Virus record (IMG/VR): IMGVR_UViG_3300020402_000137 | Location: 1 to 43,460 of that record | Reading direction: 5' to 3' (one strand) | Length of the DNA stretch: 43,460 nucleotides | Origin: a virus | Lineage: Duplodnaviria > Caudoviricetes | In this document: positions 2,597 to 18,870 of the stretch, piece after piece | Layout of the letters: every line of letters begins with the position of its first letter | How positions within the stretch are numbered: position 1 is the first letter of the stretch | Translations under genes and position numbers: made by a program | Notes under the pieces: generated by a model | Told to the model about the DNA's origin: nothing | The model's database searches: none | Seen by the model: the letters and a program-made list of their open reading frames with translations, nothing else

Positions 2597-3119
2597 CGTG
2601 ATCTTCCTTTACTTCTACATCATTGAAGTCGTTGGAAGGACTACCGCCGAAGTTACGCTTTTCAACAAGCATAACATTTCTTAGTTGAGCAGTCACACCA
2701 CGATTACCCCCCGCATTATACGGAACGAGAGCAAACGAAGCTTTAATAAGGTCTCCCGACGCGGGAAATTCTTCTTCGCCTAGCGCTTGCTTTTTAGCAT
2801 CAACAAATCCAGGTTGATACTTCGTCTTTGCAGTAATCATAACTTTGTCTGCAAATTCTTCTTTGTCAGTATCGTTACCATCTTTAAAACAATAACGAAT
2901 ATTCTTTGGAAGTTTATCCCATTCGGACTCGGCTGCCTTCTTGGATTTCGCTCTAACATTTTCAATGAAATCCGAAACGCCTTCTTGTTTAGGATCAAGC
3001 ACAAGTGTTACCTTATACTTTCCGTCTGAAAATTCCTGTCCTTCATCAGGTTTTGCTAACCAAGCGTAAGCTGCGGTTGCCGTCGGTGAGACTACTATAT
3101 CTCTTTGTACTTTTGCCAT
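2559..3119 (-). CDS. Single-stranded DNA-binding protein (gp2.5-like)
   Basis: YAWLAKPD...GKYKVTL and GVTAQLRNV motifs, acidic C-terminal tail, canonical position after RNAP. Confidence 0.88.
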   Translation of the reverse strand: MAKVQRDIVVSPTATAAYAWLAKPDEGQEFSDGKYKVTLVLDPKQEGVSDFIENVRAKSKKAAESEWDKLPKNIRYCFKDGNDTDKEEFADKVMITAKTKYQPGFVDAKKQALGEEEFPASGDLIKASFALVPYNAGGNRGVTAQLRNVMLVEKRNFGGSPSNDFNDVEVKEDHDDQKDKDFDINI

Positions 3120-3136
3120 ACTATGTTTTCTCCTTG

Positions 3137-3334
3137 TTAGTGTATAGTTTCATTACAGGGTAAATGATAAAGCATCTCATCCATAAGATGATCAACATCA
3201 ATACCCTCACTTTGTAGTTTAATTGTCTTATCTACTGACAAGACACCCAACCTTGAGAATTCTTTGAACGCATCAAGGATTAACATTTCTAAAGCCAACG
3301 AGTGTTCTACATTGAATTTAGATGTCTTGGGCAT
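3137..3334 (-). CDS. Hypothetical protein
   Basis: 65-aa ORF filling the RNAP-SSB gap. Its ATG lies inside the repeated 24-bp motif, so the start is uncertain. Confidence 0.6.
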   Translation of the reverse strand: MPKTSKFNVEHSLALEMLILDAFKEFSRLGVLSVDKTIKLQSEGIDVDHLMDEMLYHLPCNETIH

Positions 3335-3351
3335 AAGGATGCTCTAAATAA
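3328..3351 (-). promoter_or_regulatory. Putative phage RNAP promoter TTATTTAGAGCATCCTTATGCCCA
   Basis: Exact 24-bp copy of 7235-7258, placed immediately after the RNAP stop codon like T7 phi1.1. Confidence 0.7.
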
Positions 3352-5850
3352 TTACGCGAAAAAATACTCTGCATTTCTTACCTCGTTAATATCAAACTCA
3401 CCTTGTTTTGGTGGGTCAGGTAATTCTACTTTACCATTTGCAAAAGAACTTTCAACAAATGGATGAAATTCATCTCGTAACCAATCACCCTTAAACATCT
3501 CAACCGCCGTTTCTCTAATAGTATCTCGCAGTATATCCACATAACAAGGATGCACTCCGAAACTATCGTGTACCGCAGCGATATATTGAATTCCTTTTTT
3601 ATTTAATTTACAGACAACGGATTGTAATAGACTTGCGTCTAATGAATGTATGACATTCGGCGAACTAGATAACATTTGTTTTCTAGAATTTAATCCACCG
3701 CCTACAGGATTTTCATCCCACATAAAATAAGACCCCATAACCGTCTTTACATCAGACTTTGCTATGTTCCAATAAGATTGTTGAACAAGACTTCCCGTTG
3801 GTGTTTTCCATTGTAACGGATAGTCAAACTCTGCAAGAGCCGTGGCGACATCTTGAAAGTATTGCATTATAGGTCTCGATGCTACGACGGTTTTTTCAAG
3901 AGCAATAATTAATTTGTCTCTCAAGTATGCAGCATTTTCTAAACGCGTACCGCCTTTTAACTTATCAACAAAGCCATCACTAATAAGTTGATCTTGTATA
4001 CCACGCGGAGTCACACCATAACTTGTAGTCATCGTGGCTCTCTTTGCAGTTTTACGATTGATGTTACCAACCCAACGCTTTGCCTGTGTTAGATTCTTAC
4101 CATTCTTTATATCTTCATTGACTAATTCTTTTACAACTTCAGCAACATTTGTATATATGTCGTAGCGTTGTGGATCAGAACTACAATTAGTTAACCTTGC
4201 GCCTACAGGATCTCGACCAATAAGACTTAAAATTTGTAAACCATTGTTACTGCCGTCTTGGTGTACAATTATATTAGACATATACTTTTCAGGATTATCG
4301 ACATTGATTGCGTTTCGATATTCCTGACAAGCCTGTAAAAATTCTAATTCTTTATCAGCAGTTGCCCAAAATTTATTGCCGTCAAAAGGTTGAGCTGCAC
4401 TATCAAGTATCTCTTCCTTGTTATCTTTTACCCACACTTGCATATCTTCAAATGTACCTTTGTCATATCCATAAGTGTTTGCAAGTTTAACACCAAGCCA
4501 AAACAACCCGCGCTCTCCAAGTGGATATCTATCTGCAAATCTCATCGTACCTCTACCGAGACTATCAGATTGCGGATTCCAATCAGGCGTCACATAATAC
4601 ATTCTTGTCCTGGAATCACACTTGATAACATTGTAGACCGCCTTGTCACCAATGTGATCCATTAGTTTTATTTTTCTGATAACGGCTTCACGCTTTGACA
4701 TCTCTTGTGCATTGCGTCCGTGTATCTTTGATAAATTGTATTTGTATTCTGCCCGTTGCACCTTATCCATTTTCTCCCACACATCGTCACTTAGTTTTGG
4801 TGGTAGTTTTTCTGCGTTAGGTGAAGGCATACATTCAACTAAATTTAAATCATTATCGTAAACTTCACGCGCAACTTCTTTGATGTCCGTGTCCACAATG
4901 AATGGCACTTGTCCTAAGTAGTTTGCTGCGGTGATTGTAGTTTTCGATAATGGGTCATCAAGTGACGCCGTGTGTTTGTGTAAACCACCACGAATAAAAT
5001 CAATTGGTATCATATAATAACCGCCGTCATATCTTTTGTTTTCTTTATGCCAATACCAATGTCTCGGCGGTATAATCATTGGTCGCAATGTAGGACTATT
5101 GTATCCAATATCATTATTAATATCTTCAATCATTTTTCTACATTCAGGCGACAAGAATATTTGTCGTTCAGTTTTATTTCTTATTTGTACATAACGCATC
5201 TCAAAGAAACCGCCTGACTCTTCGATCAGGATAGACAATAACTTAGATCCTATGTGCATCTTTGTATCTCGACGCCAATCTAAAGTTTCAATTGCTTTTA
5301 ACTTTCGTGTCCAATTACCCCATTGCCTTTGATTAAAATTTTTAGCCGTTCTAATTAGTCTAGCTGCAACATCAGGCGTACCTGTAGTTTTACTTTGTTG
5401 CTTACTTTCTCGTAACCACTTCTCGAATTCCATTTGTTGTTTGGTTGCCAATCCAATGTTCAAACATATTGTACGCGCGGGTCTGCCAAGGCCATTGTCA
5501 GACATACGAATAGACAATAAATTTTTGATAGCAAGATAGGCAAGCTTGTCAGCTTCTACTTGTGGTAAATACCACCACCAAACAGGGCGCACTCCGCGCC
5601 CCGCATTGGCGATACCTTCAATTGCAATCTCTTGTTCTCTTTTGATTGCGGGTATCAGGAGCGACATCTGTTCTTTAAATATCTCTCGACCAACCCCTGT
5701 ATCGACTAGCCTTGTTTCTTTATCAACCAACAAGCGTCTAAACTTTTCGACGCCTTCGTTGATTGCAGCCATTTCAAACTTTACCTGTTCTTTTTCATCG
5801 GTCATTACCTCGGAAAGAACTTTTGTTAATTGAGTTTGCATATCTGACAT
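3352..5850 (-). CDS. Single-subunit DNA-directed RNA polymerase (T7 gp1-like)
   Basis: Motif A HQDGSNNGLQ, motif B RKTAKRATMTTSYG, PNVIHSLDA, motif C VHDSFG, C-terminal YFFA. Confidence 0.98.
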   Translation of the reverse strand: MSDMQTQLTKVLSEVMTDEKEQVKFEMAAINEGVEKFRRLLVDKETRLVDTGVGREIFKEQMSLLIPAIKREQEIAIEGIANAGRGVRPVWWWYLPQVEADKLAYLAIKNLLSIRMSDNGLGRPARTICLNIGLATKQQMEFEKWLRESKQQSKTTGTPDVAARLIRTAKNFNQRQWGNWTRKLKAIETLDWRRDTKMHIGSKLLSILIEESGGFFEMRYVQIRNKTERQIFLSPECRKMIEDINNDIGYNSPTLRPMIIPPRHWYWHKENKRYDGGYYMIPIDFIRGGLHKHTASLDDPLSKTTITAANYLGQVPFIVDTDIKEVAREVYDNDLNLVECMPSPNAEKLPPKLSDDVWEKMDKVQRAEYKYNLSKIHGRNAQEMSKREAVIRKIKLMDHIGDKAVYNVIKCDSRTRMYYVTPDWNPQSDSLGRGTMRFADRYPLGERGLFWLGVKLANTYGYDKGTFEDMQVWVKDNKEEILDSAAQPFDGNKFWATADKELEFLQACQEYRNAINVDNPEKYMSNIIVHQDGSNNGLQILSLIGRDPVGARLTNCSSDPQRYDIYTNVAEVVKELVNEDIKNGKNLTQAKRWVGNINRKTAKRATMTTSYGVTPRGIQDQLISDGFVDKLKGGTRLENAAYLRDKLIIALEKTVVASRPIMQYFQDVATALAEFDYPLQWKTPTGSLVQQSYWNIAKSDVKTVMGSYFMWDENPVGGGLNSRKQMLSSSPNVIHSLDASLLQSVVCKLNKKGIQYIAAVHDSFGVHPCYVDILRDTIRETAVEMFKGDWLRDEFHPFVESSFANGKVELPDPPKQGEFDINEVRNAEYFFA

Positions 5851-6086
5851 TACTTTCTCCCTCGTTCTAGCGTTGCTTGGATTAGCTGACGAATATCATT
5901 TGACGATTGTTGATATTGTTTCTTCCAATTTCTAGATCGAAAATAAAAAAATAAAATTAATCCAGGCTGAATGATAATAAACAACCACACATTAATTTCT
6001 TCGTATGAAAGACCTGTCATTGCTGACAGATCGCGCAGCAATTGGATACACCAATTACACACGCTAACCATTATCTCTTGATACAT
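5850..6086 (-). CDS. Small predicted membrane protein
   Basis: Hydrophobic segment INVWLFIIIQPGLILFFYF. Overlaps both the integrase and RNAP genes (TAATG coupling with RNAP). Confidence 0.7.
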   Translation of the reverse strand: MYQEIMVSVCNWCIQLLRDLSAMTGLSYEEINVWLFIIIQPGLILFFYFRSRNWKKQYQQSSNDIRQLIQATLERGRK

Positions 6087-7140
6087 TCGCGCTCCTTTGA
6101 TTTAAGATTTCAGTTGCCTTTCGTGACTCAACAGACGGCACTAAATGTGCATATCGTTGAGACATCTGTTCGTTCTTGTGACCAAGTAATTTACTGACAG
6201 AATATAAAGACATACCACCTTGCACCAATCGTGATGCAAAAGTATGTCTGAATGAATGACAGGTAAATTTCCCGTATCGATCAACAAGAGTTTTTTCGTT
6301 TAATCCTGAAGCTTCGATCGCATTCTTAATTACCCGTGTTGAATAACCACGAGGATTGCCGATCGTTCTCGAAGGAAAAACAAAACCGCTGCACTTATTG
6401 TCAAATCGTTTTGTCAGTATTTTTCTGACTCGTTCAGTACAATATATGATACCTTCGTTTGCCACTTTCGATCTATATAAATTGATCCATTGGAATTCCT
6501 TATCAACAGAATTCCAGGGCAAACTAGCAATCTCATTGTACCTTGCGCCTGTATCAATCAAAAAGACAACCAAGTCTTTTGAATCACCTTCAGGCAGATT
6601 AGACAATAACCTTTCCTCTTCGCCTTCTAAAAGATATCTAGTCTTTTGTTCGACGAAAAGTTTTAAGTCTTTAAAGTTTTCGTTTGGCACATTGCAGTTA
6701 TAATCGTTCCGTGCCTTATTGTATACACATATCCAAAAAGTTATTTCATTGTTAATAGTCGAATGTTTTAACCCCTCGAATAGTCTTTTGTTTTTCAGCG
6801 TCAATAACCACATACGATTTAACCTTGATATCGGTTGGTCTCCGTCGTTGTGATTTAATTTGTTTAAATAAACTTGATAGTCTTTGCCCGCCGACTTACC
6901 GAGCGCAATAGTGTCTTCAATGTATTGTCTTGCTGCGCCCGCAATAGTCATACTTTTGTAGTTTTTTAGTTGAACTTCATCCAACTTCTGTTTGTTCTGT
7001 TGTCTGAACACAGACAAAGCTTCAGACTTCACTCGTCTCTTTGTACTCTGTTTGTGATATCTGACGATATTCCCTCTGTCATCAACTACAGGCAATGACA
7101 TCCAATAGTACGGACTATCGTTTCTCTTATATACTGACAT
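6064..7140 (-). CDS. int: Tyrosine integrase/recombinase
   Basis: Catalytic residues in TGARYNE, SKV, HSFRH and LLGH...MSQRYAH. N-terminal arm-binding-like YKRNDSPYYW. Confidence 0.95.
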   Translation of the reverse strand: MSVYKRNDSPYYWMSLPVVDDRGNIVRYHKQSTKRRVKSEALSVFRQQNKQKLDEVQLKNYKSMTIAGAARQYIEDTIALGKSAGKDYQVYLNKLNHNDGDQPISRLNRMWLLTLKNKRLFEGLKHSTINNEITFWICVYNKARNDYNCNVPNENFKDLKLFVEQKTRYLLEGEEERLLSNLPEGDSKDLVVFLIDTGARYNEIASLPWNSVDKEFQWINLYRSKVANEGIIYCTERVRKILTKRFDNKCSGFVFPSRTIGNPRGYSTRVIKNAIEASGLNEKTLVDRYGKFTCHSFRHTFASRLVQGGMSLYSVSKLLGHKNEQMSQRYAHLVPSVESRKATEILNQRSANVSRDNG

Positions 7141-7171
7141 TCGTTTGTCCTTTCGTTTGCTTAATGTAAAA

Positions 7172-7245
7172 CCTTATGTCCAATGGTGAGACCATAGGTA
7201 TACTATAAGTCTATAGTACACTATAGCCCCCCAATGGGCATAAGG
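7172..7245 (-). other. Long imperfect hairpin in the integrase leader (candidate RNase III site or attP-related structure)
   Basis: The minus-strand sequence CCUUAUGCCCAUUGGGGGGCUAUAGUGUACUAUA-GACU-UAUAGUAUACCUAUGGUCUCACCAUUGGACAUAAGG pairs over roughly 32 bp, with G.U wobbles and two single-base bulges. Confidence 0.75.
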
Positions 7246-7258
7246 ATGCTCTAAATAA
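7235..7258 (-). promoter_or_regulatory. Putative phage RNAP promoter (identical to 3328-3351)
   Basis: Exact 24-bp direct repeat upstream of int and RNAP. Confidence 0.65.
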
Positions 7259-7382
7259 CCACGAGAAGTGTTGCAAAAATGCAACAGACCAGGAATACAT
7301 AACGCCATTCAAAAATTGGATACAATGGCATTCTGTAGTGAAGCTTCTCGTGGAATCTTTTGTATAGATTATTATTATCCAT
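7251..7382 (-). CDS. 43-aa small membrane protein (not in ORF track)
   Basis: MDNNNLYKRFHEKLHYRMPLYPIFEWRYVFLVCCIFATLLVVI. AGGAG RBS 6 nt before ATG and a hydrophobic C-terminus. Confidence 0.7.
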   Translation of the reverse strand: MDNNNLYKRFHEKLHYRMPLYPIFEWRYVFLVCCIFATLLVVI

Positions 7383-7402
7383 ATCGACTCCTGTTTATTC
7401 CG

Positions 7403-7594
7403 TTAACCTTCGAGAATTCGTTTCCAAGCTGCGCGTACTCGCTCTTGTTCGTCATCAGCATTTGACGGCAAACATTCGGCAGTTGCATCACAAAATTCTT
7501 CGACGACTTTTGAGATTATTTTGACCGCTTGTTGCCATTCCATACGCTCGCTTGAACCCTTCCCAAAGCGGACAGGGTTTCCGCTATCTTTCAT
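7403..7594 (-). CDS. Hypothetical early protein
   Basis: ORF track 7403..7609. The ATG at 7594 follows a GAGGTG RBS, so it is the more likely start. Confidence 0.7.
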   Translation of the reverse strand: MKDSGNPVRFGKGSSERMEWQQAVKIISKVVEEFCDATAECLPSNADDEQERVRAAWKRILEG

Positions 7595-7622
7595 TACCAA
7601 TAAAATCACCTCGCTTTCGGTT

Positions 7623-7679
7623 AGTTACGGACGCGGACTTTCGCCCGCGTTTCGTCCTTATGGACTCGTCAGCGTAACC
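7623..7679 (-). ncRNA. Type I hammerhead ribozyme (HH3)
   Basis: GGUUACG-CUGACGA-GUCC(AUAA)GGAC-GAAA-CGCGGGC(GAAA)GUCCGCG-UC-CGUAACU. All core nucleotides and all three stems are intact. Predicted cleavage after GUC, between 7630 and 7629. Confidence 0.93.
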
Positions 7680-7846
7680 TTTTGATCGACTACATCGACC
7701 GCCTTTTTGTTCATCAAAATTTGATTACAAAGAAAGGCTAAAAGTTTGTCAGACTCTGACCAATGTTTAGTCTCCTGAATCTTGGTTTGTGTAATATCCA
7801 AGTCTAGCAGGATTCTTAGCTTTACTTTTTTCTTAGTCGAACTCAT
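7658..7846 (-). CDS. Hypothetical early protein
   Basis: 62 aa with a GAGGTG RBS. Last codons and stop lie inside hammerhead HH3. Confidence 0.7.
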   Translation of the reverse strand: MSSTKKKVKLRILLDLDITQTKIQETKHWSESDKLLAFLCNQILMNKKAVDVVDQKVTLTSP

Positions 7847-8009
7847 CCGTAATCACCTCGCTTTCTTCCATTTCGTCTTCGGGTTGTCCGTTCTTTTCGT
7901 CTTCCGTTTCGTCTAACTTTTTACGGAAAAATTTTAAGGTCTCTTCGACATCGATAACTACTCTATCGTTGTCGTCGAGACCCCAAAATACTCGTTGTTT
8001 TATGTGCAT
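7833..8009 (-). CDS. 58-aa highly acidic early protein (not in ORF track)
   Basis: MHIKQRVFWGLDDNDRVVIDVEETLKFFRKKLDETEDEKNGQPEDEMEESEVITDEFD. GAAGGAG RBS; fills the gap between the methyltransferase and the next ORF. Confidence 0.75.
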   Translation of the reverse strand: MHIKQRVFWGLDDNDRVVIDVEETLKFFRKKLDETEDEKNGQPEDEMEESEVITDEFD

Positions 8010-9103
8010 TTAACTCCTTCCATTATTTGTTTGATTATTCCGATAGTCCACCCATTGCCGAGCATTCTATATCTTTGTGTTTTGCTGACATAATTAGTGT
8101 AATTATCGGGAACATTCTGCAACCTTTCGCATTCAACAGGTGTAAGCTTTCGCCAACTATATTTGTCGGTTTCCTGTAAAATTAAATGATTGTCAGATTG
8201 AACGCTTGTAAGCGCGTTTGATTTATCGTCAAAACGCATTTCGTATTGTTGATTGTATTTAGTCTCATTAGCCTTTTTACGACCTCTGAGAGCGCCTATA
8301 CCGATTTTAGGTTCAGTATTACCGCCCATACAAGCGTTGAGCGTTGGCGACTTGCCTTCGACGGAATAAACACGCTTTAAGATATCGTGTCCGTTAATAT
8401 CGGACGCCATACCTATCTTTTTTAATCCGTCTTTTGATGTTTTTGGATTATCAATTAAAACCATTGTTCGTTGGTTTCGCTCGATAGAATTCCAATACAC
8501 CGCGCCTTGATATCTAGCCGTCAAACAATGCGCCTTGCCGTTGTTTGTCATTGCCTTATGACTAGTGCCATTTTCTAGGATATCGCATAGCATTATGCCT
8601 TTATCCTCGAAATTTTTATTAAATGGAATATTAGTCCAATATAAACGCTTTCGATGTTGCGCGCTTACAAGTGAACTATTTATCTCCACGGGTTCAACGC
8701 CAAGATATTTACTAATAATATCCTGACTCTCTTTTTTCATTTTGACATTTTCCAAAAGAAAATATTTCGGTTTTAACTCGTTGAGAATTTCAACAAAGTT
8801 AAAAAATAGTTTCGATCTTGGATCTTCAAAATTTAATTGTTTACCCGCATAGCTGAACCCCTGACAAGGTGACCCGCCAAGAAGTAAATCTATTTTTGGA
8901 AATTTGTTATCTCTCCAAAATTTTAATACACCTCGAACATCGCCGAGGTGCATTGTATTTGGAAAATTTTCTTGAGCAACTTTGATAGCGTATTTATCAA
9001 TCTCACTCGCGAAATAATTTTTAACAGGAATCCGCGCTTGTTTTAGTGCAAGCTGACCGCAAGACATCCCGTCAAATAAAGATAAAACATTTAAACCTTC
9101 CAT
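8000..9103 (-). CDS. C5 cytosine DNA methyltransferase
   Basis: Motif I LFDGMSCG, catalytic GGSPCQGFS, ENV, QHRKRLYW, LTPVECERLQ, LGNGW. Confidence 0.95.
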   Translation of the reverse strand: MEGLNVLSLFDGMSCGQLALKQARIPVKNYFASEIDKYAIKVAQENFPNTMHLGDVRGVLKFWRDNKFPKIDLLLGGSPCQGFSYAGKQLNFEDPRSKLFFNFVEILNELKPKYFLLENVKMKKESQDIISKYLGVEPVEINSSLVSAQHRKRLYWTNIPFNKNFEDKGIMLCDILENGTSHKAMTNNGKAHCLTARYQGAVYWNSIERNQRTMVLIDNPKTSKDGLKKIGMASDINGHDILKRVYSVEGKSPTLNACMGGNTEPKIGIGALRGRKKANETKYNQQYEMRFDDKSNALTSVQSDNHLILQETDKYSWRKLTPVECERLQNVPDNYTNYVSKTQRYRMLGNGWTIGIIKQIMEGVKCT

Positions 9104-9306
9104 TGTTTTACCTTTCCATTATCAGTTAAATAAACGGCGGTCGTCACACTTTGTAGATTTCCCTTTTTATTCTTATATTGAATATTTACGGGAATTTTTG
9201 GAAATTTACTAGCAATCTTCCTAAGACATTTTTTATAGGAATTTTCACTAATAACTTCTGTTTGTTCCGCTGACGGAACTTTGCTAATTGTGTAGTCGTA
9301 TCGCAT
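9091..9306 (-). CDS. Hypothetical early protein
   Basis: 71 aa with an AGAAAGG RBS, directly downstream of hammerhead HH2. Confidence 0.72.
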   Translation of the reverse strand: MRYDYTISKVPSAEQTEVISENSYKKCLRKIASKFPKIPVNIQYKNKKGNLQSVTTAVYLTDNGKVKQWKV

Positions 9307-9344
9307 TTTTTAGCCTTTCTTTTGTTAATATTCTGATAAATAAA

Positions 9345-9404
9345 AAACCTCATCAGCGCCCGCAACACGGACGGACGCGGGCAAAAATACCCGCGTTTCG
9401 GTTT
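9345..9404 (-). ncRNA. Type II hammerhead ribozyme (HH2)
   Basis: AAACC-GAAA-CGCGGG(UAUUUUUG)CCCGCG-UC-CGUCCG(UGUUG)CGGGCG-CUGAUGA-GGUUU. Predicted cleavage between 9374 and 9373. Confidence 0.93.
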
Positions 9405-9876
9405 AGCCTGTTATTTGTTCGGTCGTTGTTTTTCTATCAAGATAAACGCGTAAATTTTTAGATTTAGAAATTGGTTGTCCGTGATAGGTGCAACCTGTTT
9501 TTCTAAATTCGTCTTTTACATTTTGACCTTTTACACGCATTTTATATCCGTCTTTATTTAGATAGATTTTTAAAAGTTTTATAAATTGCTTTCCAAAATC
9601 ATCATTCGGGATTTTTTCAAAAGCCATTTCATAACCTACATTGTAAGTTTTATATTTTGGCGCAAGTCTATCGTAAAACGATTTAGACATTAGAGTTTTT
9701 TTAACTATTCGTAAAAGGTGGACTAATTCCATATCAAGAATATTTATATATTCCTGTTTGCTTTCCGAAAAGTATTTTAAACCCTCGTCGTTAAAATCTT
9801 GTAAATCACACGGGAAAGCGCGCCCGTCGTTATCGTGAATTACTTTATCGATTTCTAAAAGTTTTCTTATTTGCAT
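9403..9876 (-). CDS. Hypothetical early protein
   Basis: 157-aa ORF with an AGAAAGG RBS, flanked on both sides by hammerheads. Confidence 0.8.
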   Translation of the reverse strand: MQIRKLLEIDKVIHDNDGRAFPCDLQDFNDEGLKYFSESKQEYINILDMELVHLLRIVKKTLMSKSFYDRLAPKYKTYNVGYEMAFEKIPNDDFGKQFIKLLKIYLNKDGYKMRVKGQNVKDEFRKTGCTYHGQPISKSKNLRVYLDRKTTTEQITG

Positions 9877-9911
9877 TTTATAGCCTTTCTTTTGTTTGTT
9901 CTAACTCGGTT

Positions 9912-9967
9912 ATCCTCGTCAGCGCCGACATAATCGACGGACGCGAGCAATTGCCCGCGTTTCGGAT
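9912..9967 (-). ncRNA. Type II hammerhead ribozyme (HH1)
   Basis: AUCC-GAAA-CGCGGGC(AAUU)GCUCGCG-UC-CGUCGA(UUAUG)UCGGCG-CUGACGA-GGAU. Predicted cleavage between 9940 and 9939. Confidence 0.93.
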
Positions 9968-9969
9968 TT

Positions 9970-10758
9970 TTATATAGCGTCAACAACAAAACCGCTTTTG
10001 TCGCCTATCGCGTCGCCTTTAGCGTATAAACCGACAACAACGCCTTGTTCATCGTAAAACCTAACATCGGTTTCGTCGCCGTTTATTACACGCATATTTA
10101 AAAAAGTTTTTGGCAAAATTTTATCACGAAAAACAACCGCAATTCTCATTCCGTTTTTAATCGCAATTTTTATTTGATCTTGAAACAATGTCTCTATTCC
10201 TGAATAACTAAAAGTTAAATCGTAAATTTCAGGATTAGGAATTTTTCTATTTGCAAGTTTTGTATAGTCGTAAAATTTAACATTATATTCGTTATATAAT
10301 TCGACCATATCCGCCCAAAAGTAATTTTCAATTCTGATATCGCTAGTACCATTAAAACGCACCGCAAATTGATATCCTTGCGCTTGCGCTTTTTTACTTT
10401 CTTTTATTATTTCATATTTTAATTGGGTTAAGAATTCGTCGCGTCTATCTATCCAATAAAGCGTTTTTCTAATTCTTGATAATTGTACGCTTGTAAACTT
10501 TCCACGCCCCGCCGAATACAAACAAGCTTTTTCGCAACCCGCCAATTTTGCCATTGGGCAAGTATTATAGAAATTTAAAGTATTAGACGGCGTAAGATAT
10601 ATAATACCTGTTTTAACTTTAAGCTTGTCGCCTTTTATTGTCTTAGCGTCGCCGTCAATTGTCATTAACTTAGCGGGCAATTTTTGAAACAATTGCGCGT
10701 TTTCATTAATCGCTTTTAAGATGTTTGGATTAGTTATTTTTGAGATTGATTTAAACAT
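9970..10758 (-). CDS. Gp88-like phage protein (Cys-cluster)
   Basis: TCPMAKLAGCEKACLYSAGRG, VRFNGTSDI, FYDYTK, NGDETDVRFYD and GVVVGLYAKG motifs, recalled from GP88-family phage proteins. First gene of the early region. Confidence 0.72.
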   Translation of the reverse strand: MFKSISKITNPNILKAINENAQLFQKLPAKLMTIDGDAKTIKGDKLKVKTGIIYLTPSNTLNFYNTCPMAKLAGCEKACLYSAGRGKFTSVQLSRIRKTLYWIDRRDEFLTQLKYEIIKESKKAQAQGYQFAVRFNGTSDIRIENYFWADMVELYNEYNVKFYDYTKLANRKIPNPEIYDLTFSYSGIETLFQDQIKIAIKNGMRIAVVFRDKILPKTFLNMRVINGDETDVRFYDEQGVVVGLYAKGDAIGDKSGFVVDAI

Positions 10759-10797
10759 TCGTTTTGCCTTTCGTTTAGTTACATTTTGTTAATTCTG

Positions 10798-10827
10798 ATT
10801 ATATGCATATTTTTTAAAAAAAGACAA
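10798..10827 (-). promoter_or_regulatory. Host sigma70-type early promoter
   Basis: TTGTCT-18 nt-TATAAT about 40 nt upstream of the first early gene. Confidence 0.72.
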
Positions 10828-10871
10828 ACACTTTAAGAAAAAAATAGTGTTACAGGGGTGCGCGTCCGTGC

Positions 10872-10912
10872 CGTGATAAATATATCACAACCGCTGTTGC
10901 AAAAATACAACA
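10872..10912. promoter_or_regulatory. Two tandem 18-bp imperfect palindromes (operator-like)
   Basis: CGTGATAAATATATCACA (10872-10889) and TGTTGCAAAAATACAACA (10895-10912). A near-identical TGTTGCAAAAATGCAACA occurs at 7269-7286. Confidence 0.5.
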
Positions 10913-11002
10913 CTCACGATTTACCCAATAACACTAAATAACAGGAATATCTTTTATATAACAATATGAACAACCGCCGATAATTTAAGCATATCAACAA
11001 GT

Positions 11003-11221
11003 TTATTTTTGCCCGCCGTCAATCGTAACAATAACGGGATTGCTTTTTGTTTTCTGACAGGTTTTTTTGAAGCTTCGACCTGGACGCCTGGCAGCCAGGG
11101 TCACGGGGGTTCGCCAAAGTGTGTCGGGGAAAATATGACCACACGAATTTTTGGCATTTTTTGAAAACGGCTCTCTAGGAAGACGAGGGAGTACATATGT
11201 TGCTATCAAATGACCAAACAT
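11003..11221 (-). CDS. Possible small ORF in the terminal region
   Basis: Strong AGGAGG RBS 9 nt before ATG, but atypical composition and it spans hairpin-rich DNA. Confidence 0.3.
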   Translation of the reverse strand: MFGHLIATYVLPRLPREPFSKNAKNSCGHIFPDTLWRTPVTLAARRPGRSFKKTCQKTKSNPVIVTIDGGQK

Positions 11222-11233
11222 ACCTGAAACCTC

Positions 11234-11395
11234 CTAATCCTTCTGTATGACGCTTATATCGCCATTAAACGCCATTCGCCCTTTTCGGCTATAAATTTTC
11301 TTATTTTTAACTATCTTCTGACGGAACTTCGGTGTCCGAAGGTCTTTCGCCAATGGATTCGCTTTCCTCTTCGGGCGTTTTGGATTCTTCGACAT
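11234..11395 (-). CDS. Small basic protein resembling ArfA (alternative ribosome rescue factor A)
   Basis: MSKNPKRPKRKANPLAKDLRTPKFRQKIVKNKKIYSRKGR matches the ArfA pattern N-x4-L-x2-P-x-FRQ-x3-KNKK...Y-x-RKG, without the GKGS insert. Confidence 0.6.
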   Translation of the reverse strand: MSKNPKRPKRKANPLAKDLRTPKFRQKIVKNKKIYSRKGRMAFNGDISVIQKD

Positions 11396-11768
11396 ACTCG
11401 TTCCACGAAAGTTGAAAATGTGGTGCATCTTTAAAAGTCTCCCAATCTCCACCCCATTCAATAGTAATACCTTTATTAGATCCTATAGCTTTAATTAAGT
11501 TAGCAACAGGAATATATTCATCGAACTCCCATACTGCTTTCTTATCTTTATATATAAATATATCTACGGCGTGACCTGTAAGATGTCTTGAATTCATAGT
11601 TTGAGATTTACCTTCTCTGACTAATTCTCTTTGTCTCTCTTTAGTTCTTAAACCTTCAGATATACCAAAGTCTACAGGTGAAACAGATATTGCTTCTACC
11701 ATTATAGATACTAAATCTTCGTGTACGCCTTTAAGTTTACTCATAGATGTTTTTCCAAAAGTATACAT
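11307..11768 (-). CDS. Endolysin, M15-family (L-Ala-D-Glu) peptidase
   Basis: EGLRTKERQ, SRHLTGHAVD and WGGDW...DAPHFQL motifs. Confidence 0.92.
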   Translation of the reverse strand: MYTFGKTSMSKLKGVHEDLVSIMVEAISVSPVDFGISEGLRTKERQRELVREGKSQTMNSRHLTGHAVDIFIYKDKKAVWEFDEYIPVANLIKAIGSNKGITIEWGGDWETFKDAPHFQLSWNEYVEESKTPEEESESIGERPSDTEVPSEDS

Positions 11769-11778
11769 AACTATCCCC

Positions 11779-12072
11779 TTATATTTTAATTTTAGTTAGT
11801 TTAATAACATTCTTAGTTGGTATTGTAGTAACACCACCAATGTCACCTAATGTACCATCGTCATTAAAATTGTAATCACTTGCAATCCTATGACAATGAT
11901 TGTTTGTTGATATTAACCAACCTGTTGATAAACATATCGTAGGTTTGGTTGTCTTTGCTTTATCTTGTGTCAGCCAGCTTGCATCACTATTGATATCAAG
12001 CCACCAACAAAAATAATAATCAGCTATGTCAGGTATATCAGGTAATACTAAAGCTTTCTTTTTTTTCGCCAT
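11779..12072 (-). CDS. Hypothetical phage protein
   Basis: 97-aa ORF with a WLDI...W, STGWL, TTIP pattern, overlapping the terminase end. Confidence 0.75.
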   Translation of the reverse strand: MAKKKKALVLPDIPDIADYYFCWWLDINSDASWLTQDKAKTTKPTICLSTGWLISTNNHCHRIASDYNFNDDGTLGDIGGVTTIPTKNVIKLTKIKI

Positions 12073-13928
12073 TGTTCCCCCTTTCTATCTGACATCCATA
12101 CTTCAGTTCGTTGCCCACCACGCTTAACCCCACGGATCAATTTTGCACCGCCTTCCATAAACTCTAAGAAATCTTCGATCTCTTCGTCCATTCTTTGTTG
12201 TAGCACACCTTGAGCAGCTTGGTTGACATCTTGTTCCATCGATCGCTGATAGTGTGCTACTGCGCCCGCTAGGGCGTCTAATCGGTCGTCGTGTTTCAAC
12301 GACCCTCTGTCTCTTGTTATATGTGTCAACTGATATAACAAAGAGAATCGATGGTCTTCTGCACGAGCCTCGGCACGCGCTAAATCTTCATCTATCACTA
12401 ATCGGTGTTGTGCTAATACGGGTTCAAGCGTATCTATAATTCTTAATTCTTTTTGACCTTTCGCCCATTCGGACTCACAGACCGTACAACCGCCAGGCCA
12501 CACTTTTGATAATACAGGTTGGAATGCAGCAAGCCACATCCCTTGTCCAAAGTTAGGTTCAACCTCAATGGTTTGCACATCGTATTTCTTTGCGTCTATG
12601 GCTATCTGTGTCATAGCATCAGACGGATCTCCGTGTGTTCCACCAATGTGTAAACAATACATAATACCATTAAGAACACCTACGATTGCCCAGGCAGTTT
12701 CGTCCGCTCCTCTTCCTGAAGGATCGACAAATAAAACCTTAGACTCTAAAGTTTCCCATTCTTTATCTATAAACAATGGTCGCAAAAAGTGATCACCTGA
12801 GAAACCTAAGTTAGGTATATCTTTTATGTAATTACCTTTATCATTATCTCTTCCCCATTGTACCGTCAGCGGTGCTTTCATAGGGTTGATAGCCATTGTA
12901 ATCAAATTGAATTGTCTTAATGGATATCTTTCGGCATCTGATAAAGATGTATCTAACATATATTGTAAAGCAAACGATGCTCTACCTTTAGACTCAATCT
13001 TTATTAATTCTTCTTCACCAAACCTTTTATCTGTAATATCACCTGACTTCATTTTCTTTGTAGCGTATCTTGCTAAAAGATAAGGTGCTAATATGTTTAC
13101 CTCTGTTCCTTTGTTGTTATCTGTTAACAAATAGTTTTTAAGTTTGTCGGTAGTCGGAAACCTTACAGGAATTGTAAAACAATTAAATCCCATCTCTGTG
13201 ACTAGTTTATTATAAACAGACTCTTCTGTCTGAGGAGTACCCAATAATATTATGTCTCCCTTTCCGTGTTCTGTTTTTGTAATCGGTACAAAGTCAGATT
13301 GGATAATTCGTACAATTCTTTGTCTAGCTTCTTCCGTAAGGCTATTACGCTCAACTTCTATATCGTCAGCAATTAAGATAGTCGCACGACTACCTGTTAT
13401 CTGACCTGTAATACCACGCGCAGCAACACTATACGATTGCGATAGTGATGCTCCCGCTACATCAAATTGATCAGCCATATCTCTTCGAGCTGCACCTGAC
13501 TCACGATTACCTTCGAGTAACCATTGAACTAAGTCCATTGACTCTAGGATACCTTTAGTTTGTGCAACGAATTCTTTTGCCTTAGATCCTGTAGCTGAGA
13601 CTACAAGTATCTTTTCGTCTCTAGGGTTTCTCATTAAACGCCATATAGCATACGCAGAAGTAATGTAAGATTTACCCAATGATCTAAAGCATCGTATAAT
13701 ATCTTCGCGCGGGCCACTTACAGATATTCCTTGCGAAAGTTCTGTAGTATCAACGCCGTGTTGGAGACGATGTGCAATTTCATATTGAGCGGCGGTAGGT
13801 TCAGGCAGACCTAAGTGTTGCCACACAATAAATAAAAAGTTTCTAAAATCTGTATATGCTCCCCACACATCATCAGGAAATGTAGTTTCCCAATGCGGTC
13901 TATCCTCAAGCATTAGGGGATTGAGCAT
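12048..13928 (-). CDS. Terminase large subunit (gp19-like)
   Basis: FRSLGKSYIT Walker A, ITGSRATILIADDIE, LGTPQ, FALQYMLD, VDPSGRGADET, HDDRLDALAGAV. Confidence 0.97.
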   Translation of the reverse strand: MLNPLMLEDRPHWETTFPDDVWGAYTDFRNFLFIVWQHLGLPEPTAAQYEIAHRLQHGVDTTELSQGISVSGPREDIIRCFRSLGKSYITSAYAIWRLMRNPRDEKILVVSATGSKAKEFVAQTKGILESMDLVQWLLEGNRESGAARRDMADQFDVAGASLSQSYSVAARGITGQITGSRATILIADDIEVERNSLTEEARQRIVRIIQSDFVPITKTEHGKGDIILLGTPQTEESVYNKLVTEMGFNCFTIPVRFPTTDKLKNYLLTDNNKGTEVNILAPYLLARYATKKMKSGDITDKRFGEEELIKIESKGRASFALQYMLDTSLSDAERYPLRQFNLITMAINPMKAPLTVQWGRDNDKGNYIKDIPNLGFSGDHFLRPLFIDKEWETLESKVLFVDPSGRGADETAWAIVGVLNGIMYCLHIGGTHGDPSDAMTQIAIDAKKYDVQTIEVEPNFGQGMWLAAFQPVLSKVWPGGCTVCESEWAKGQKELRIIDTLEPVLAQHRLVIDEDLARAEARAEDHRFSLLYQLTHITRDRGSLKHDDRLDALAGAVAHYQRSMEQDVNQAAQGVLQQRMDEEIEDFLEFMEGGAKLIRGVKRGGQRTEVWMSDRKGEQWRKKRKL

Positions 13929-14239
13929 TAGGTTCTCCTTTTATATGATCGTTTATTAATTCTTAGATATCCATCGATGAATGCACTAACACCATTGATT
14001 GCTCCTGGAACACCTTCAGTTCCATCTTTAACACCTTCGAGCAATTGCATTTCTTTGTTAGGACTATACCCAACTTTAGGTGCTTTAGATTTTCTTTTGT
14101 TAGCATCTTCAAGCAATGGATTTTTAACTTGTTGTGTCTTTGGTGTCATATTAGTCCGCATCTGATTTTGTGTCGGTGACATAATCTGTAAAGGTGCGGG
14201 TCTATATTGACTTGACGCTAGTCCTGATTTAACTGCCAT
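13928..14239 (-). CDS. Hypothetical protein between the terminase subunits
   Basis: 103 aa with an AAGGAG RBS; TAATG coupling to the large subunit. Confidence 0.7.
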   Translation of the reverse strand: MAVKSGLASSQYRPAPLQIMSPTQNQMRTNMTPKTQQVKNPLLEDANKRKSKAPKVGYSPNKEMQLLEGVKDGTEGVPGAINGVSAFIDGYLRINKRSYKRRT

Positions 14240-16314: not shown

Positions 16315-18855
16315 CTAAAACAATACTAATTTAGGCGTATAGAAACTATGACCATCGTCTTCAGGAATAGCGTAAGAACCACCATATCCCCACATAAAGA
16401 GTTGACCATCTTCTAGCAATGCAGCCCAACCACCTTCACTTGATTGTCCGTGTTGAGAAATCTGTATTACTTTGCCTGGTAATCCATAAACTTCGTAGAA
16501 CACTTGGTAGTTATTACCTGTTTGTCCTACACCGACTTGACCGTTTCCATTATAACCACAAACCCAAACCTTACCTTCTGAAGTTAGTACCGCAGAAGTT
16601 TGATATTGTGTTCCGCCCGCAAACATAGCTTGAGTGACGGTAAATGGATAACTAGCTGCTGATAGTGTTTGGTTAGCATAAGTTCCGTCGTTTTGTAGTA
16701 AACGGAATTTCATTTCTGTATATGTGTTTAATGCAGTTGTGTTACCTTGACCTAATTGTCCATAGCCATTGTAACCCGCAGCCCAAACGCTTCCATCAGT
16801 TTTAATAATCATTGTTGAATTATAGTTATCAGTACAATGTGTAACTGCTACTTTAGATACATCACTCATAACATTTGTTGGGTTATAGTAATTACCCGCA
16901 GTACCACCACGACCAAAGTAACCATTGTTATCATAACCCCAATTCCAAAGATTGTTGGCAGTATCAATAACAAAGACACCTTTGTGACTTACCGCAGCAA
17001 TTCTATCAATTACATTACCACCATTAGTCGGGCCAACCACAGGAACAATAGTCGGTGTTGTGTGGTTAGTCGTGTTATTTTCTCCGTGTTGGTAGTAACC
17101 TGTATATCCAACAGAATATACATCTCCGTTTTCTGTAAGAACTATTAGTGTTGGATTAGACGCACTACTAATTTCAATTTGTTTAGCTTTGTAAGCAGAA
17201 ACACCACCTACACCAAATGTAGGATATTGTTTAAACTGATATTGAGCCGAAGTATTACCTTGACCCATAACGCCGTGGCCATTGTAACCTGATCCGTAAA
17301 CGAATCCATCTTCGTCTCGAACAACAATTGCGCCGTTGTTTCCGTCAGTTGCGTGTGGTGTTGCTAGTTCAACAATTTTCTTTCTTGACGAAGGTACTGA
17401 TGTACTACCAATACCACCTGTATAGTTAGTTCTTGTAGAAATATTTACAGGTACACCTCTTCGTCCTTCAAAAGTTCCACCCCCAGTATTATTTTGAATA
17501 CCCATTTCGCCGTAGTTATTATTACCCCAAGTCCAAAGATGTTTGTTTTTATCAATACAAGCACCAAAAGAGTTGTAGTTTTGCATAAAGTTTCCTTCAA
17601 CTTGTGTGTCAATACCTGGAAACTCTTGCGGAAACGCTACAGGAATAGGTTGTGATCTGTTATTTGTAGTATATCCGATACCACCTTTGTAATTTCCGTT
17701 GTTACCCCACCATCTTAGTGAGCCATCTTGCATAAGAACCATTTGTGATCGGTAACTTCCCGCCATATCAACTTTTAATTTAGCAACTTTTGTACCTGAT
17801 CGTACACTTTCTTGTTCCCAAACAGGCATAAGTGTAGATTCGTCAATTTTTAAGACTTGATTTTCTGCACCAACAGGTAATGTTTGTAGTTGTGTGCCAT
17901 CATAGTACAATAAATCACCTTCAACACTTCCTGTCGAGTCTACACCCGTAGCAAATGTTGCCCAATTGGAAGAATTAACGGTCACCGACACCGATGCTTT
18001 TGCAGTTGGTAGCGAACCGCCCATTCCAGAATGGAAATGACAATAATAGTAGAGATTTGGGGCATCTACAGGTACTTGAATTTGTACATACCTTGTAGTT
18101 GCGTTGGTGTAAGCGCTAGAAGTGTAAGCAGCTAGACCATCACCAAGAGAATTGACCGTTAGTACAATATCAGTTGTACCTGTACCAACAATGCTTGATG
18201 CAGCAATAGTAATTGTGTCGTTGACGGCGTAACCTGTACCACTATCTTTTTTAACAATAGTCGCGTTACCACTTCCATCAATTTGTACATCGCAAATAAA
18301 ACCCGTTCCTGAACCACTTGAAGTAGTAGCAACATTAGAGTTAATGTTTGCGGTTCTTCCCGCATCATATCCACCTGAAGTTAGAGTAAATGCTCCAACA
18401 ACATTCTTATCTTGTGCCGCAGCACCATCTAGGTAATAACTTACGCCTGACGAATAGTTAGTTCCCGCACTAGGAGAGGTAGTGTGAGTTCCATCTGAAG
18501 TCGCGCTAAATAGGAGAGGATGATTAGCGTTAGACGAATCGTTTTGGTAGAACTTGTAAGTGTTACCTTCAATTAATTTAAGATATTTTTGTTTTACATA
18601 AGTACCAGAGCCATCAGTTACATCGATGTAAAAATAATTAGAGCCACCATCAGATTGTACTTTTGCGTAGTATTCTTCAGTAGCCGTACCTAAGTTTGTA
18701 GAGACCGTTGCGGGTACTACATTATTTGTACCATCTTGTGTACAAATATAAGTCGTACCATTAAAGGCCGCTATATCTTGTTCGTTGTAAGTTGCCGTGT
18801 TGGAATAATTTCCTCTCCACGAAAACTTAACCTTTCCTAATGAAATTGTCGTCAT
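16315..18855 (-). CDS. Tail fibre/receptor-binding protein with RCC1-like beta-propeller repeats and a cupredoxin-like motif
   Basis: Repeated DGxVWxxGYNGxGQLG units; NHPLLFS...YYYCHFHSGMG. Confidence 0.8.
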   Translation of the reverse strand: MTTISLGKVKFSWRGNYSNTATYNEQDIAAFNGTTYICTQDGTNNVVPATVSTNLGTATEEYYAKVQSDGGSNYFYIDVTDGSGTYVKQKYLKLIEGNTYKFYQNDSSNANHPLLFSATSDGTHTTSPSAGTNYSSGVSYYLDGAAAQDKNVVGAFTLTSGGYDAGRTANINSNVATTSSGSGTGFICDVQIDGSGNATIVKKDSGTGYAVNDTITIAASSIVGTGTTDIVLTVNSLGDGLAAYTSSAYTNATTRYVQIQVPVDAPNLYYYCHFHSGMGGSLPTAKASVSVTVNSSNWATFATGVDSTGSVEGDLLYYDGTQLQTLPVGAENQVLKIDESTLMPVWEQESVRSGTKVAKLKVDMAGSYRSQMVLMQDGSLRWWGNNGNYKGGIGYTTNNRSQPIPVAFPQEFPGIDTQVEGNFMQNYNSFGACIDKNKHLWTWGNNNYGEMGIQNNTGGGTFEGRRGVPVNISTRTNYTGGIGSTSVPSSRKKIVELATPHATDGNNGAIVVRDEDGFVYGSGYNGHGVMGQGNTSAQYQFKQYPTFGVGGVSAYKAKQIEISSASNPTLIVLTENGDVYSVGYTGYYQHGENNTTNHTTPTIVPVVGPTNGGNVIDRIAAVSHKGVFVIDTANNLWNWGYDNNGYFGRGGTAGNYYNPTNVMSDVSKVAVTHCTDNYNSTMIIKTDGSVWAAGYNGYGQLGQGNTTALNTYTEMKFRLLQNDGTYANQTLSAASYPFTVTQAMFAGGTQYQTSAVLTSEGKVWVCGYNGNGQVGVGQTGNNYQVFYEVYGLPGKVIQISQHGQSSEGGWAALLEDGQLFMWGYGGSYAIPEDDGHSFYTPKLVLF

Positions 18856-18870
18856 TATATTCTCTCCTTG

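Follow-up and report, generated by a model that had tools for sequence, protein, structure and literature searches.

T7-like phages are the textbook case of early messenger RNA (mRNA) processing by a host enzyme, and the early transcript of T7 itself holds five RNase III sites (PMC4858673). The virus record IMGVR_UViG_3300020402_000137 (Duplodnaviria; Caudoviricetes), whose entire length of 43,460 bases was analysed and is called the window below, raises the question of what three hammerhead ribozymes, named A, B and C, do at the early gene junctions of such a phage. By its single-subunit RNA polymerase and one-strand gene set, the genome is that of an integrase-bearing T7-like phage: all genes with a family match lie on the minus (coding) strand, among them the T7-type set of phrog_414 polymerase, single-stranded DNA-binding protein, primase/helicase, DNA polymerase, head-tail adaptor, capsid, tail and terminase, and a tyrosine integrase adjoins the RNA polymerase gene on its upstream side. 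The answer favoured here, with a probability of roughly 0.6, is that the hammerheads are processing sites that would split the early transcript into shorter messages, as RNase III does in T7. Judging from the comparisons presented below, the elements are real and conserved, and likely to be functional.

Three hammerheads at early gene junctions

Three sense-strand elements with the full hammerhead core and three stems had been proposed in a preliminary description of this DNA, and both the Rfam models and a structural descriptor recovered them at the same coordinates, the descriptor also giving the same cut positions (Table 1). Exactly three Rfam matches at E≤1 were obtained in the window, all of them minus-strand hammerheads: A matched Hammerhead_II at 9967-9906 (29 bits against a cut-off of 37) and B at 9401-9349 (27.6 bits against 37), with E values over all 4227 families of 0.058 and 0.14, respectively, and C matched Hammerhead_1 at 7678-7624 (33.9 bits against 34, E 8e-5). 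The identical copies found in the genome G004 gave per-genome E values of 6.5e-6, 1.5e-5 and 8.9e-9. When both strands of the window were scanned with the descriptor, the same three cores and no others were found, and 40 third-order Markov control sequences yielded no match. The core is canonical in all three (CUGANGA, GAAA and UH, with GUC at the cut), stems I/II/III hold 7/4/8 pairs in A, 7/5/8 in B and 7/4/7 in C according to the descriptor, and the folding z-scores are -2.97, -2.39 and -2.47.

It had also been noted that stems and loops differ among the three elements while pairing is kept. The pairing was confirmed, but the differences do not make them independent cases: A and B are 78% alike across 37 nucleotides (nt), one 20-base pattern around stem III matches A, B and C, and by this likeness the three are paralogues rather than independent designs, the real covariation being that seen across relatives. 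Since the sequence around stem III is shared, A, B and C are likely to derive from one ancestor, C by permutation. A BLASTN comparison of hammerhead B with named phages returned one chance match only.

The three copies lie on one strand within 2.3 kb, flank single genes or short blocks and occupy three of the seven junctions that separate the genes from the first early one to the integrase, with a layout consisting of a stop codon at or over the ribozyme, an A-rich spacer and a ribosome site downstream. As had been described, each of them starts at or overlaps the stop codon of the upstream gene: A begins 3 nt after the stop of the GP88 gene, stem II of B overlaps the upstream stop codon, and in C the upstream stop (7660-7658) is located in loop II, so that the last codons of that open reading frame (ORF) run through the ribozyme. 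The distance from the cut to the next start, previously put at about 35-70 nt, is 63 nt for A and 67 nt for B, in agreement with that range, and 20, 29 or 35 nt for C, depending on whether GTG 7609, TTG 7600 or ATG 7594 is the start. Cutting at these sites would yield pieces of about 850 nt (the GP88 gene, a length that rests on a weak promoter candidate), 566 nt (one ORF) and 1744 nt (the four-ORF methyltransferase block from B to C), followed by the integrase/RNA polymerase remainder. The idea that each early gene would be tuned separately was therefore not upheld, with a predicted cut at three of seven junctions and predicted pieces of one, one, four and several genes. In RNA data, one run contained a small share of the region. 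RNA reads of run X1 gave six short contigs over 3000-14000, one of which, at 7428-7613, stops 16 nt short of cut C; as this is a single contig with a depth under 5 from a single study, its end is not usable as an RNA end. Runs X6 and X7 yielded no usable contigs.

Hammerheads and RNase III-like hairpins in related phages

Polymerase searches of viral contigs yielded 19 and 47 loci, and 35 related records (34 from these searches and one other, short fragments being left out) were scanned with the Rfam type II model. Hammerheads of this type were found in 12 of the 35 records and in three of the six near-complete ones, ten of the 35 being above the cut-off, and the same model gave no match in 14 control genomes. 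Two of the 12 carriers are essentially the window's own lineage and two further pairs are near-duplicates. All 21 type II matches among the relatives are located in the early region and on the coding strand. The core is invariant across the 21 copies apart from position 7 and one inserted U. Stem II pairs 2 and 3, on which the register does not depend, form in every copy, with three pair types each (pairs are counted outward from the core, a procedure that itself imposes stem III pairs 2-4, II.1 and I.1). Among the 18 non-redundant copies, 15 have the closest preceding stop, taken from ORFs of at least 40 amino acids (aa), some of which may be spurious, 2-6 nt ahead of the core, and the remaining three have it 11, 19 and 20 nt ahead; in all 18, a start that has a ribosome site follows the cut by 47-69 nt. 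A MAFFT alignment of 14 copies placed the cut triplet out of register and was not used. Separately, an extra nucleotide between core position 9 and stem II was observed in five of the 21 clade copies and in most of the array of the unrelated contig G036 described below, such copies occurring in G012, G014, G015, G018, TRX32-1, RHEph01 and G036.

A sister genome (G017 with matching metagenome contigs), whose RNA polymerase is 85% identical to that of the window, carries three hammerheads in positions that match those of the window: after GP88, before the methyltransferase, and between the homologues of ORFs 7658-7846 and 7403-7609. At this third site a type II hammerhead with unrelated stems is found in the sister genome and a type I hammerhead in the window, and because the topology changed between homologous ORFs, it appears that the cut site was kept rather than the sequence. 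In the window, as in G017, G012, G015 and G018, one hammerhead stands on each side of the methyltransferase block, and the genes flanked by hammerheads vary among relatives. In the near-identical strain G001, an extra 62-aa hydrophobic ORF (L002:5699-5887) stands between GP88 and hammerhead A, which there starts at the stop codon of the extra ORF. On a quick polymerase tree, from which no direction of gain or loss is claimed, carriers are distributed in three sublineages with non-carriers interspersed. Other ribozyme classes were sought in the hammerhead-free relatives: ten loci gave none at Rfam cut-offs, in a scan that the second hammerheads of L026 and L027 escaped as well, and six loci gave none at E≤1.

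Carriers were also found among cultured phages. In a sample of 19 hand-picked GenBank records, 18 of them labelled Autographiviridae, type II matches at E≤0.01, none above the cut-off, were obtained in the Rhizobium phages TRX32-1 and RHEph01 and in the Pelagibacter phage HTVC168P, and the model had no match in the other 16 records, including T7, HTVC019P, HTVC011P and P-SSP7. With the descriptor, each of the three carriers was found to have a type I copy as well, and RHEph01 also a type III copy; the hammerheads of these phages lie in the early region, before the integrase or polymerase, and copies for which the descriptor gives just two stem III pairs are less certain. Since the Rfam type I model had no match in any of the 19 named records, three of which contain type I copies by the descriptor, absences based on Rfam are weak. 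With three cultured T7-like carriers at hand, the question becomes testable in infection.

Regarding the other kind of processing signal, hammerheads A, B and C are three-way junctions and not long double-stranded hairpins of the RNase III type. A strict scan of the window for long unbranched hairpins gave three in the 3.8 kb early region, four in the 7.1 kb middle region and eight in the 32 kb late region; it replaced a looser first scan with 70 late-region matches. Two of the early hairpins, 7988-7932 and 7236-7181, are RNase III-like by shape and place, but may instead be terminators or have other roles. As the window keeps such hairpins, its phage probably uses both kinds of signal, and the segmentation can no longer be described as host-independent, as had been suggested.

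A hairpin starting within 7 nt of a stop codon was found in five of seven hammerhead-free early stretches, compared with one of six hammerhead-bearing genomes, the one being the window (7988-7932). In the ribozyme-free G003 and G028, a hairpin of at least 22 pairs extends from the GP88 stop, which is the position of hammerhead A in the window, and in Lo5R7ANS a long hairpin lies about 30 nt after that stop. An exchange between hammerheads and RNase III-type hairpins at early junctions appears plausible from this comparison, which is a small sample, made after looking, with RNase III cleavage deduced from shape. Ribozymes at T7-like junctions, with hairpins of RNase III-like shape at the corresponding place in some relatives, offer a natural comparison.

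Proposed transcript processing and its alternatives

If the hammerheads are processing sites, host RNA polymerase would start near 10790 and each ribozyme would fold and cut during or soon after transcription. At a type II site, cutting would leave the upstream piece closed off by the stem III hairpin and a cyclic phosphate, and its downstream neighbour would carry a 5'-OH and open with the stem I hairpin; in all 18 type II copies, both new ends are predicted to bear hairpins (stem III -9 to -18 kcal/mol, stem I -6 to -14 kcal/mol). Ends bearing 5'-OH would escape 5'-monophosphate-assisted decay by RNase E. The leftover core strand would then pair downstream, setting the upstream piece free, blocking re-ligation and leaving the ribosome site accessible. 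The downstream messages would thereby be insulated and stabilised in the manner of RiboJ, with which mRNA rises about twofold and protein two- to tenfold (PMC6206723), and this would take place alongside RNase III-type hairpins, not instead of them.

The downstream pairing of the core strand was recognised in A and B, where it involves sequence 11-13 nt further downstream (Table 1). This core-pairing hairpin is significant in five of 18 clade copies, four of them from the window's lineage, and in none of the 41 copies taken from unrelated phages. When the window is compared with G001, the 22 nt of the A hairpin show six substitutions, all of which keep or add pairs: two pairs are changed on both sides, one wobble becomes a standard pair and one mismatch becomes a wobble. 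At one substituted position there is, in addition, covariation with the 5' strand of stem II, which makes a three-way relation. Most simply, the core-pairing hairpin would form when the cut product refolds. A minimal tertiary contact of hammerheads joins a U at position 1.7 to an A before stem II; it fits five of six window-type copies but also four of the 12 others, and was rejected as not discriminating. A pseudoknot between loop I and the tail after stem II is possible in most other relatives (49 summed pairs versus 38.8 with permuted partners, p=0.005), and three possible pairs were counted in A and one in B versus a mean of 4 in the other 12 copies. By their predicted pairing, A and B are thus outside the pseudoknotted type II subtype of the Perreault 2011 consensus.

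Several observations weigh against the processing reading. The Rfam models single out just the three hammerheads in the window, but all of these fall below the curated cut-offs (RF00163 / RF02276), by 0.1 bits for C, 8 bits for A and 9.4 bits for B. No type II match was obtained in the near-complete G002 and G003 (66% polymerase identity, 96-98% complete) or in G020, and five other hammerhead-free GP88 junctions are without a strong hairpin (none in G020, L040, HTVC134P and CRP-143, a weak one in S42-C7). In a nearest-neighbour model, which ignores tertiary contacts and magnesium, the catalytic fold of both A and B is 5.4 kcal/mol less stable than the core-pairing fold, the same gap being only 2.6-3.1 kcal/mol in three pseudoknotted relatives. 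With the catalytic fold disfavoured and without the loop I pseudoknot, A and B could be slow or partly inactive. The protection of 5' ends suggested previously is sustained structurally for A and B, where a hairpin is flush with the new 5' end, but not for the piece after C, which is nearly unstructured and lacks a 5' hairpin (-3.9 kcal/mol, z 0.16). RNase J, the nuclease that degrades the glmS cleavage product, is present in alphaproteobacteria. That product illustrates that a 5'-OH is not always protective, since it is degraded after cleavage (PMC6765202).

Some of the same evidence could be explained by ribosome-gated two-state switches, in which a ribosome terminating upstream blocks stem II, the core pairs downstream and the transcript remains whole, lagging translation resulting in the cut. 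In 15 of 18 copies, the stop codon falls within the 5' strand of stem II or adjoins it, and in C it falls within loop II; the hairpin of A and B is stronger than with shuffled tails and is favoured over the catalytic fold, and the G001 substitutions all keep or add hairpin pairs, one of them covarying three ways with stem II. However, this hairpin, found after looking and not predicted, is significant in few clade copies, mostly of one lineage, and in no unrelated one; refolding after the cut explains it equally well, and a compact genome already predicts tight packing of stop and ribozyme, all of which makes such a switch unlikely. Much the same low credence is given to the joint proposal that RNase III hairpins and ribozymes are swapped at T7-like early junctions and that the type II hammerheads here are switches of this kind, with the upstream stop placed on stem II and a selected downstream hairpin locking the core, so that cutting would depend on upstream translation. 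The cuts could also limit expression by opening the message to decay and uncoupling translation, so that GP88, the methyltransferase and their neighbours would be made only briefly. The glmS precedent of cleavage followed by degradation (PMC6765202), the two long hairpins of the methyltransferase block, one of them inside the gene, and the missing 5' hairpin after C agree with this, but it is judged improbable given that type II geometry puts hairpins on both new ends in 18 of 18 copies and that every copy is followed by its own ribosome site.

A somewhat smaller chance still is given to gene-exchange cassettes, in which repeats of ribozyme and ribosome site would let small early genes swap, each with its own 5' end. 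The extra ORF of G001, the differing inter-hammerhead genes of relatives and the unrelated phages in which each gene has its copy (with as many as 20 Rfam matches over 13 kb) are in line with it, although the copies of the window share little sequence (37 nt, 78%) and the third site switched topology though both neighbours stayed homologous; moreover, cassettes are compatible with processing sites. That the elements are passengers, selfish or neutral, which do nothing for the phage, as their patchy distribution on the quick polymerase tree and their absence from 16 of the 19 hand-picked GenBank records might suggest, is very improbable, since the cores do not vary, changes in the stems compensate each other, the spacing is fixed and the copies are confined to the coding strand of the early region; no flanking mobile element was seen. 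Least credible is the excision and circularisation of single-gene RNAs by ribozyme pairs: an open stem II permits mixed pairing between copies, and the possibility was raised in PMC3088659, but that paper found no circles, a mixed A/B stem II would have two pairs in the window and one in G001, and the core-pairing hairpin would oppose ligation.

Known systems, gene map and minor observations

The processing idea is already contained in Perreault 2011, where triple hammerheads flanking prophage genes were proposed to process transcripts into operon- or single-gene mRNAs, and where three triple arrangements were cleaved in vitro and one also in E. coli (PMC3088659). The basic layout has thus been known, together with this idea, since 2011. 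The prophage clusters of Agrobacterium tumefaciens, Azorhizobium caulinodans and Clostridium scindens resemble the window in having three hammerheads of mixed type on one strand near an integrase and in flanking single genes or short blocks, one of them the ardA anti-restriction gene, where the window has a methyltransferase block (PMC3088659). In contrast, the window belongs to a T7-like phage with its own RNA polymerase, its A and B lack the pseudoknot and have the core-pairing hairpin, and cleavage is predicted for its hammerheads, whereas it was shown for the prophage clusters (PMC3088659). According to the same source, hammerheads are listed in the phages PaP3, LUZ24, HF1 and HF2, likewise free phage genomes, and the HHphage element of HF1/HF2 precedes an early gene, the 5' end of the halovirus early transcript mapping within 3 nt of it; these are single or variant-core copies in other virus groups, whereas the cores of the window are canonical (PMC3088659).

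In T7, as would be the case in the window, an early message that is made by the host polymerase and has the gene of the phage RNA polymerase at its end is cut at gene junctions into short mRNAs. However, RNase III leaves a 5'-phosphate and a 3'-OH, whereas the hammerheads would leave a 5'-OH and a cyclic phosphate, and T7 has no type II match, whereas the window has RNase III-like hairpins besides its hammerheads, so that both may coexist. RiboJ also consists of a hammerhead followed by a hairpin before a ribosome site, giving a defined, hairpin-bearing 5' end, but it is engineered and placed after a promoter, whereas the elements of the window are natural, stand between genes and build the second hairpin from the core strand itself (PMC6206723). 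If it has a function, the core-pairing hairpin would act as an insulator or switch of natural ribozymes. In two reviews, the function of phage and bacterial hammerheads is called open (PMC6765202, PMC6155905). A literature search, mostly of freely readable papers, found no report of hammerheads in T7-like early regions, although the alignment list of Perreault 2011 could include related sequences. What is new here is the T7-like setting, the long RNase III-like hairpins at junctions of ribozyme-free relatives and the core-pairing hairpin of A and B.

Table 1. Coordinates of the hammerheads, hairpins and early-region genes of the window, and of the hammerheads in three cultured phages
Feature	Record	Position	Strand	Remark
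Hammerhead A, type II	window	9912..9967	-	predicted cut 9940/9939
Hammerhead B, type II	window	9345..9404	-	predicted cut 9374/9373
Hammerhead C, type I	window	7623..7679	-	predicted cut 7630/7629
Alternative hairpin of A, core strand with downstream sequence	window	9901..9922	-	p=0.005 versus 200 tail shuffles
Alternative 8-pair hairpin of B, core strand with downstream sequence	window	9333..9356	-	p=0.035 versus shuffled tails
Long unbranched hairpin inside methyltransferase gene	window	8912..8965	-	strict hairpin scan
Long unbranched hairpin in ORF 7833-8009	window	7932..7988	-	-29 kcal/mol, z -9.4; 12 nt after methyltransferase stop
Long hairpin before integrase	window	7181..7236	-	z -8.7; kept with sequence changes in sister genome G017, z -8.6
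Candidate host sigma-70-type early promoter	window	10798..10827	-	10/12 matches, 40 nt before first early gene; weak
First early gene, GP88 family (PF17338; phrog_1617)	window	9970..10758	-	family match
157-aa ORF between hammerheads A and B, without family	window	9403..9876	-	44% identical homologue in sister genome
71-aa ORF directly after hammerhead B, without family	window	9091..9306	-	
C5-cytosine DNA methyltransferase (PF00145), block between hammerheads B and C	window	8000..9103	-	
Two small ORFs, 7833-8009 and 7658-7846, the latter ending within hammerhead C	window	7658..8009	-	
Small ORF directly after hammerhead C	window	7403..7609	-	homologue after third hammerhead of sister genome, E 2.5e-8
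Tyrosine integrase	window	6064..7140	-	483 nt after hammerhead C
Single-subunit T7-type RNA polymerase	window	3352..5850	-	
Hammerheads of TRX32-1	MW023914.1	L131:2598-2669, 3328-3392		unannotated
Hammerheads of RHEph01	JX483873.1/NC_047738.1	L152, predicted cuts after 665, 2107, 2633		unannotated
Hammerheads of HTVC168P	OR420735.1	L151, predicted cuts after 545, 1259		unannotated

The candidate early promoter was chosen by position alone, the window holding 14 promoter-like sites versus 19.9 expected by chance. The RNA polymerase of the window is only about 28% identical to those of named phages. A search of the window for transfer RNA (tRNA) genes found none, and no relatives by polymerase alignment were found in GTDB genomes. 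A terminase with 59% identity was found in an alphaproteobacterial metagenome-assembled genome, whose adjoining region is without a hammerhead, and it was set aside as a clue to the host, being too distant to name one.

A 33-nt direct repeat (91%) is present in the window at 3328-3360, at the end of the RNA polymerase gene, and at 7235-7267, just ahead of the pre-integrase hairpin. G017 has recognisable counterparts of both copies, no third copy occurs in the window, and the repeat is possibly a phage promoter or regulator site. The stretch L015:4139-4200, between a small post-integrase gene and the RNA polymerase gene, resembles the reverse complement of a tRNA 3' half, which we take to be a tRNA-Met fragment, and could possibly be an attachment site. 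Two large late proteins with RCC1-like repeats (phrog_4219) are encoded at 16315-20742 of the window, adjoining the tail fibre gene.

Hammerhead arrays were also observed in phages unrelated to the window. The 112-kb phage contig G036 (G036:C1:874-13935; L078, L097) holds 20 Rfam type II matches in 13 kb, or 23 by the descriptor, with about one hammerhead per gene on a single strand, the genes including an ArdC anti-restriction protein and a Ku homologue. Between two and six type II hammerheads with the same succession of stop codon, ribozyme and ribosome site occur in the further unrelated contigs G037 (L094, L098), G038 (L082) and G039 (L095, L099), and likewise in L109, L114, L117 and L129. 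In L109, L125 and L129, the complement of the core is present just downstream.

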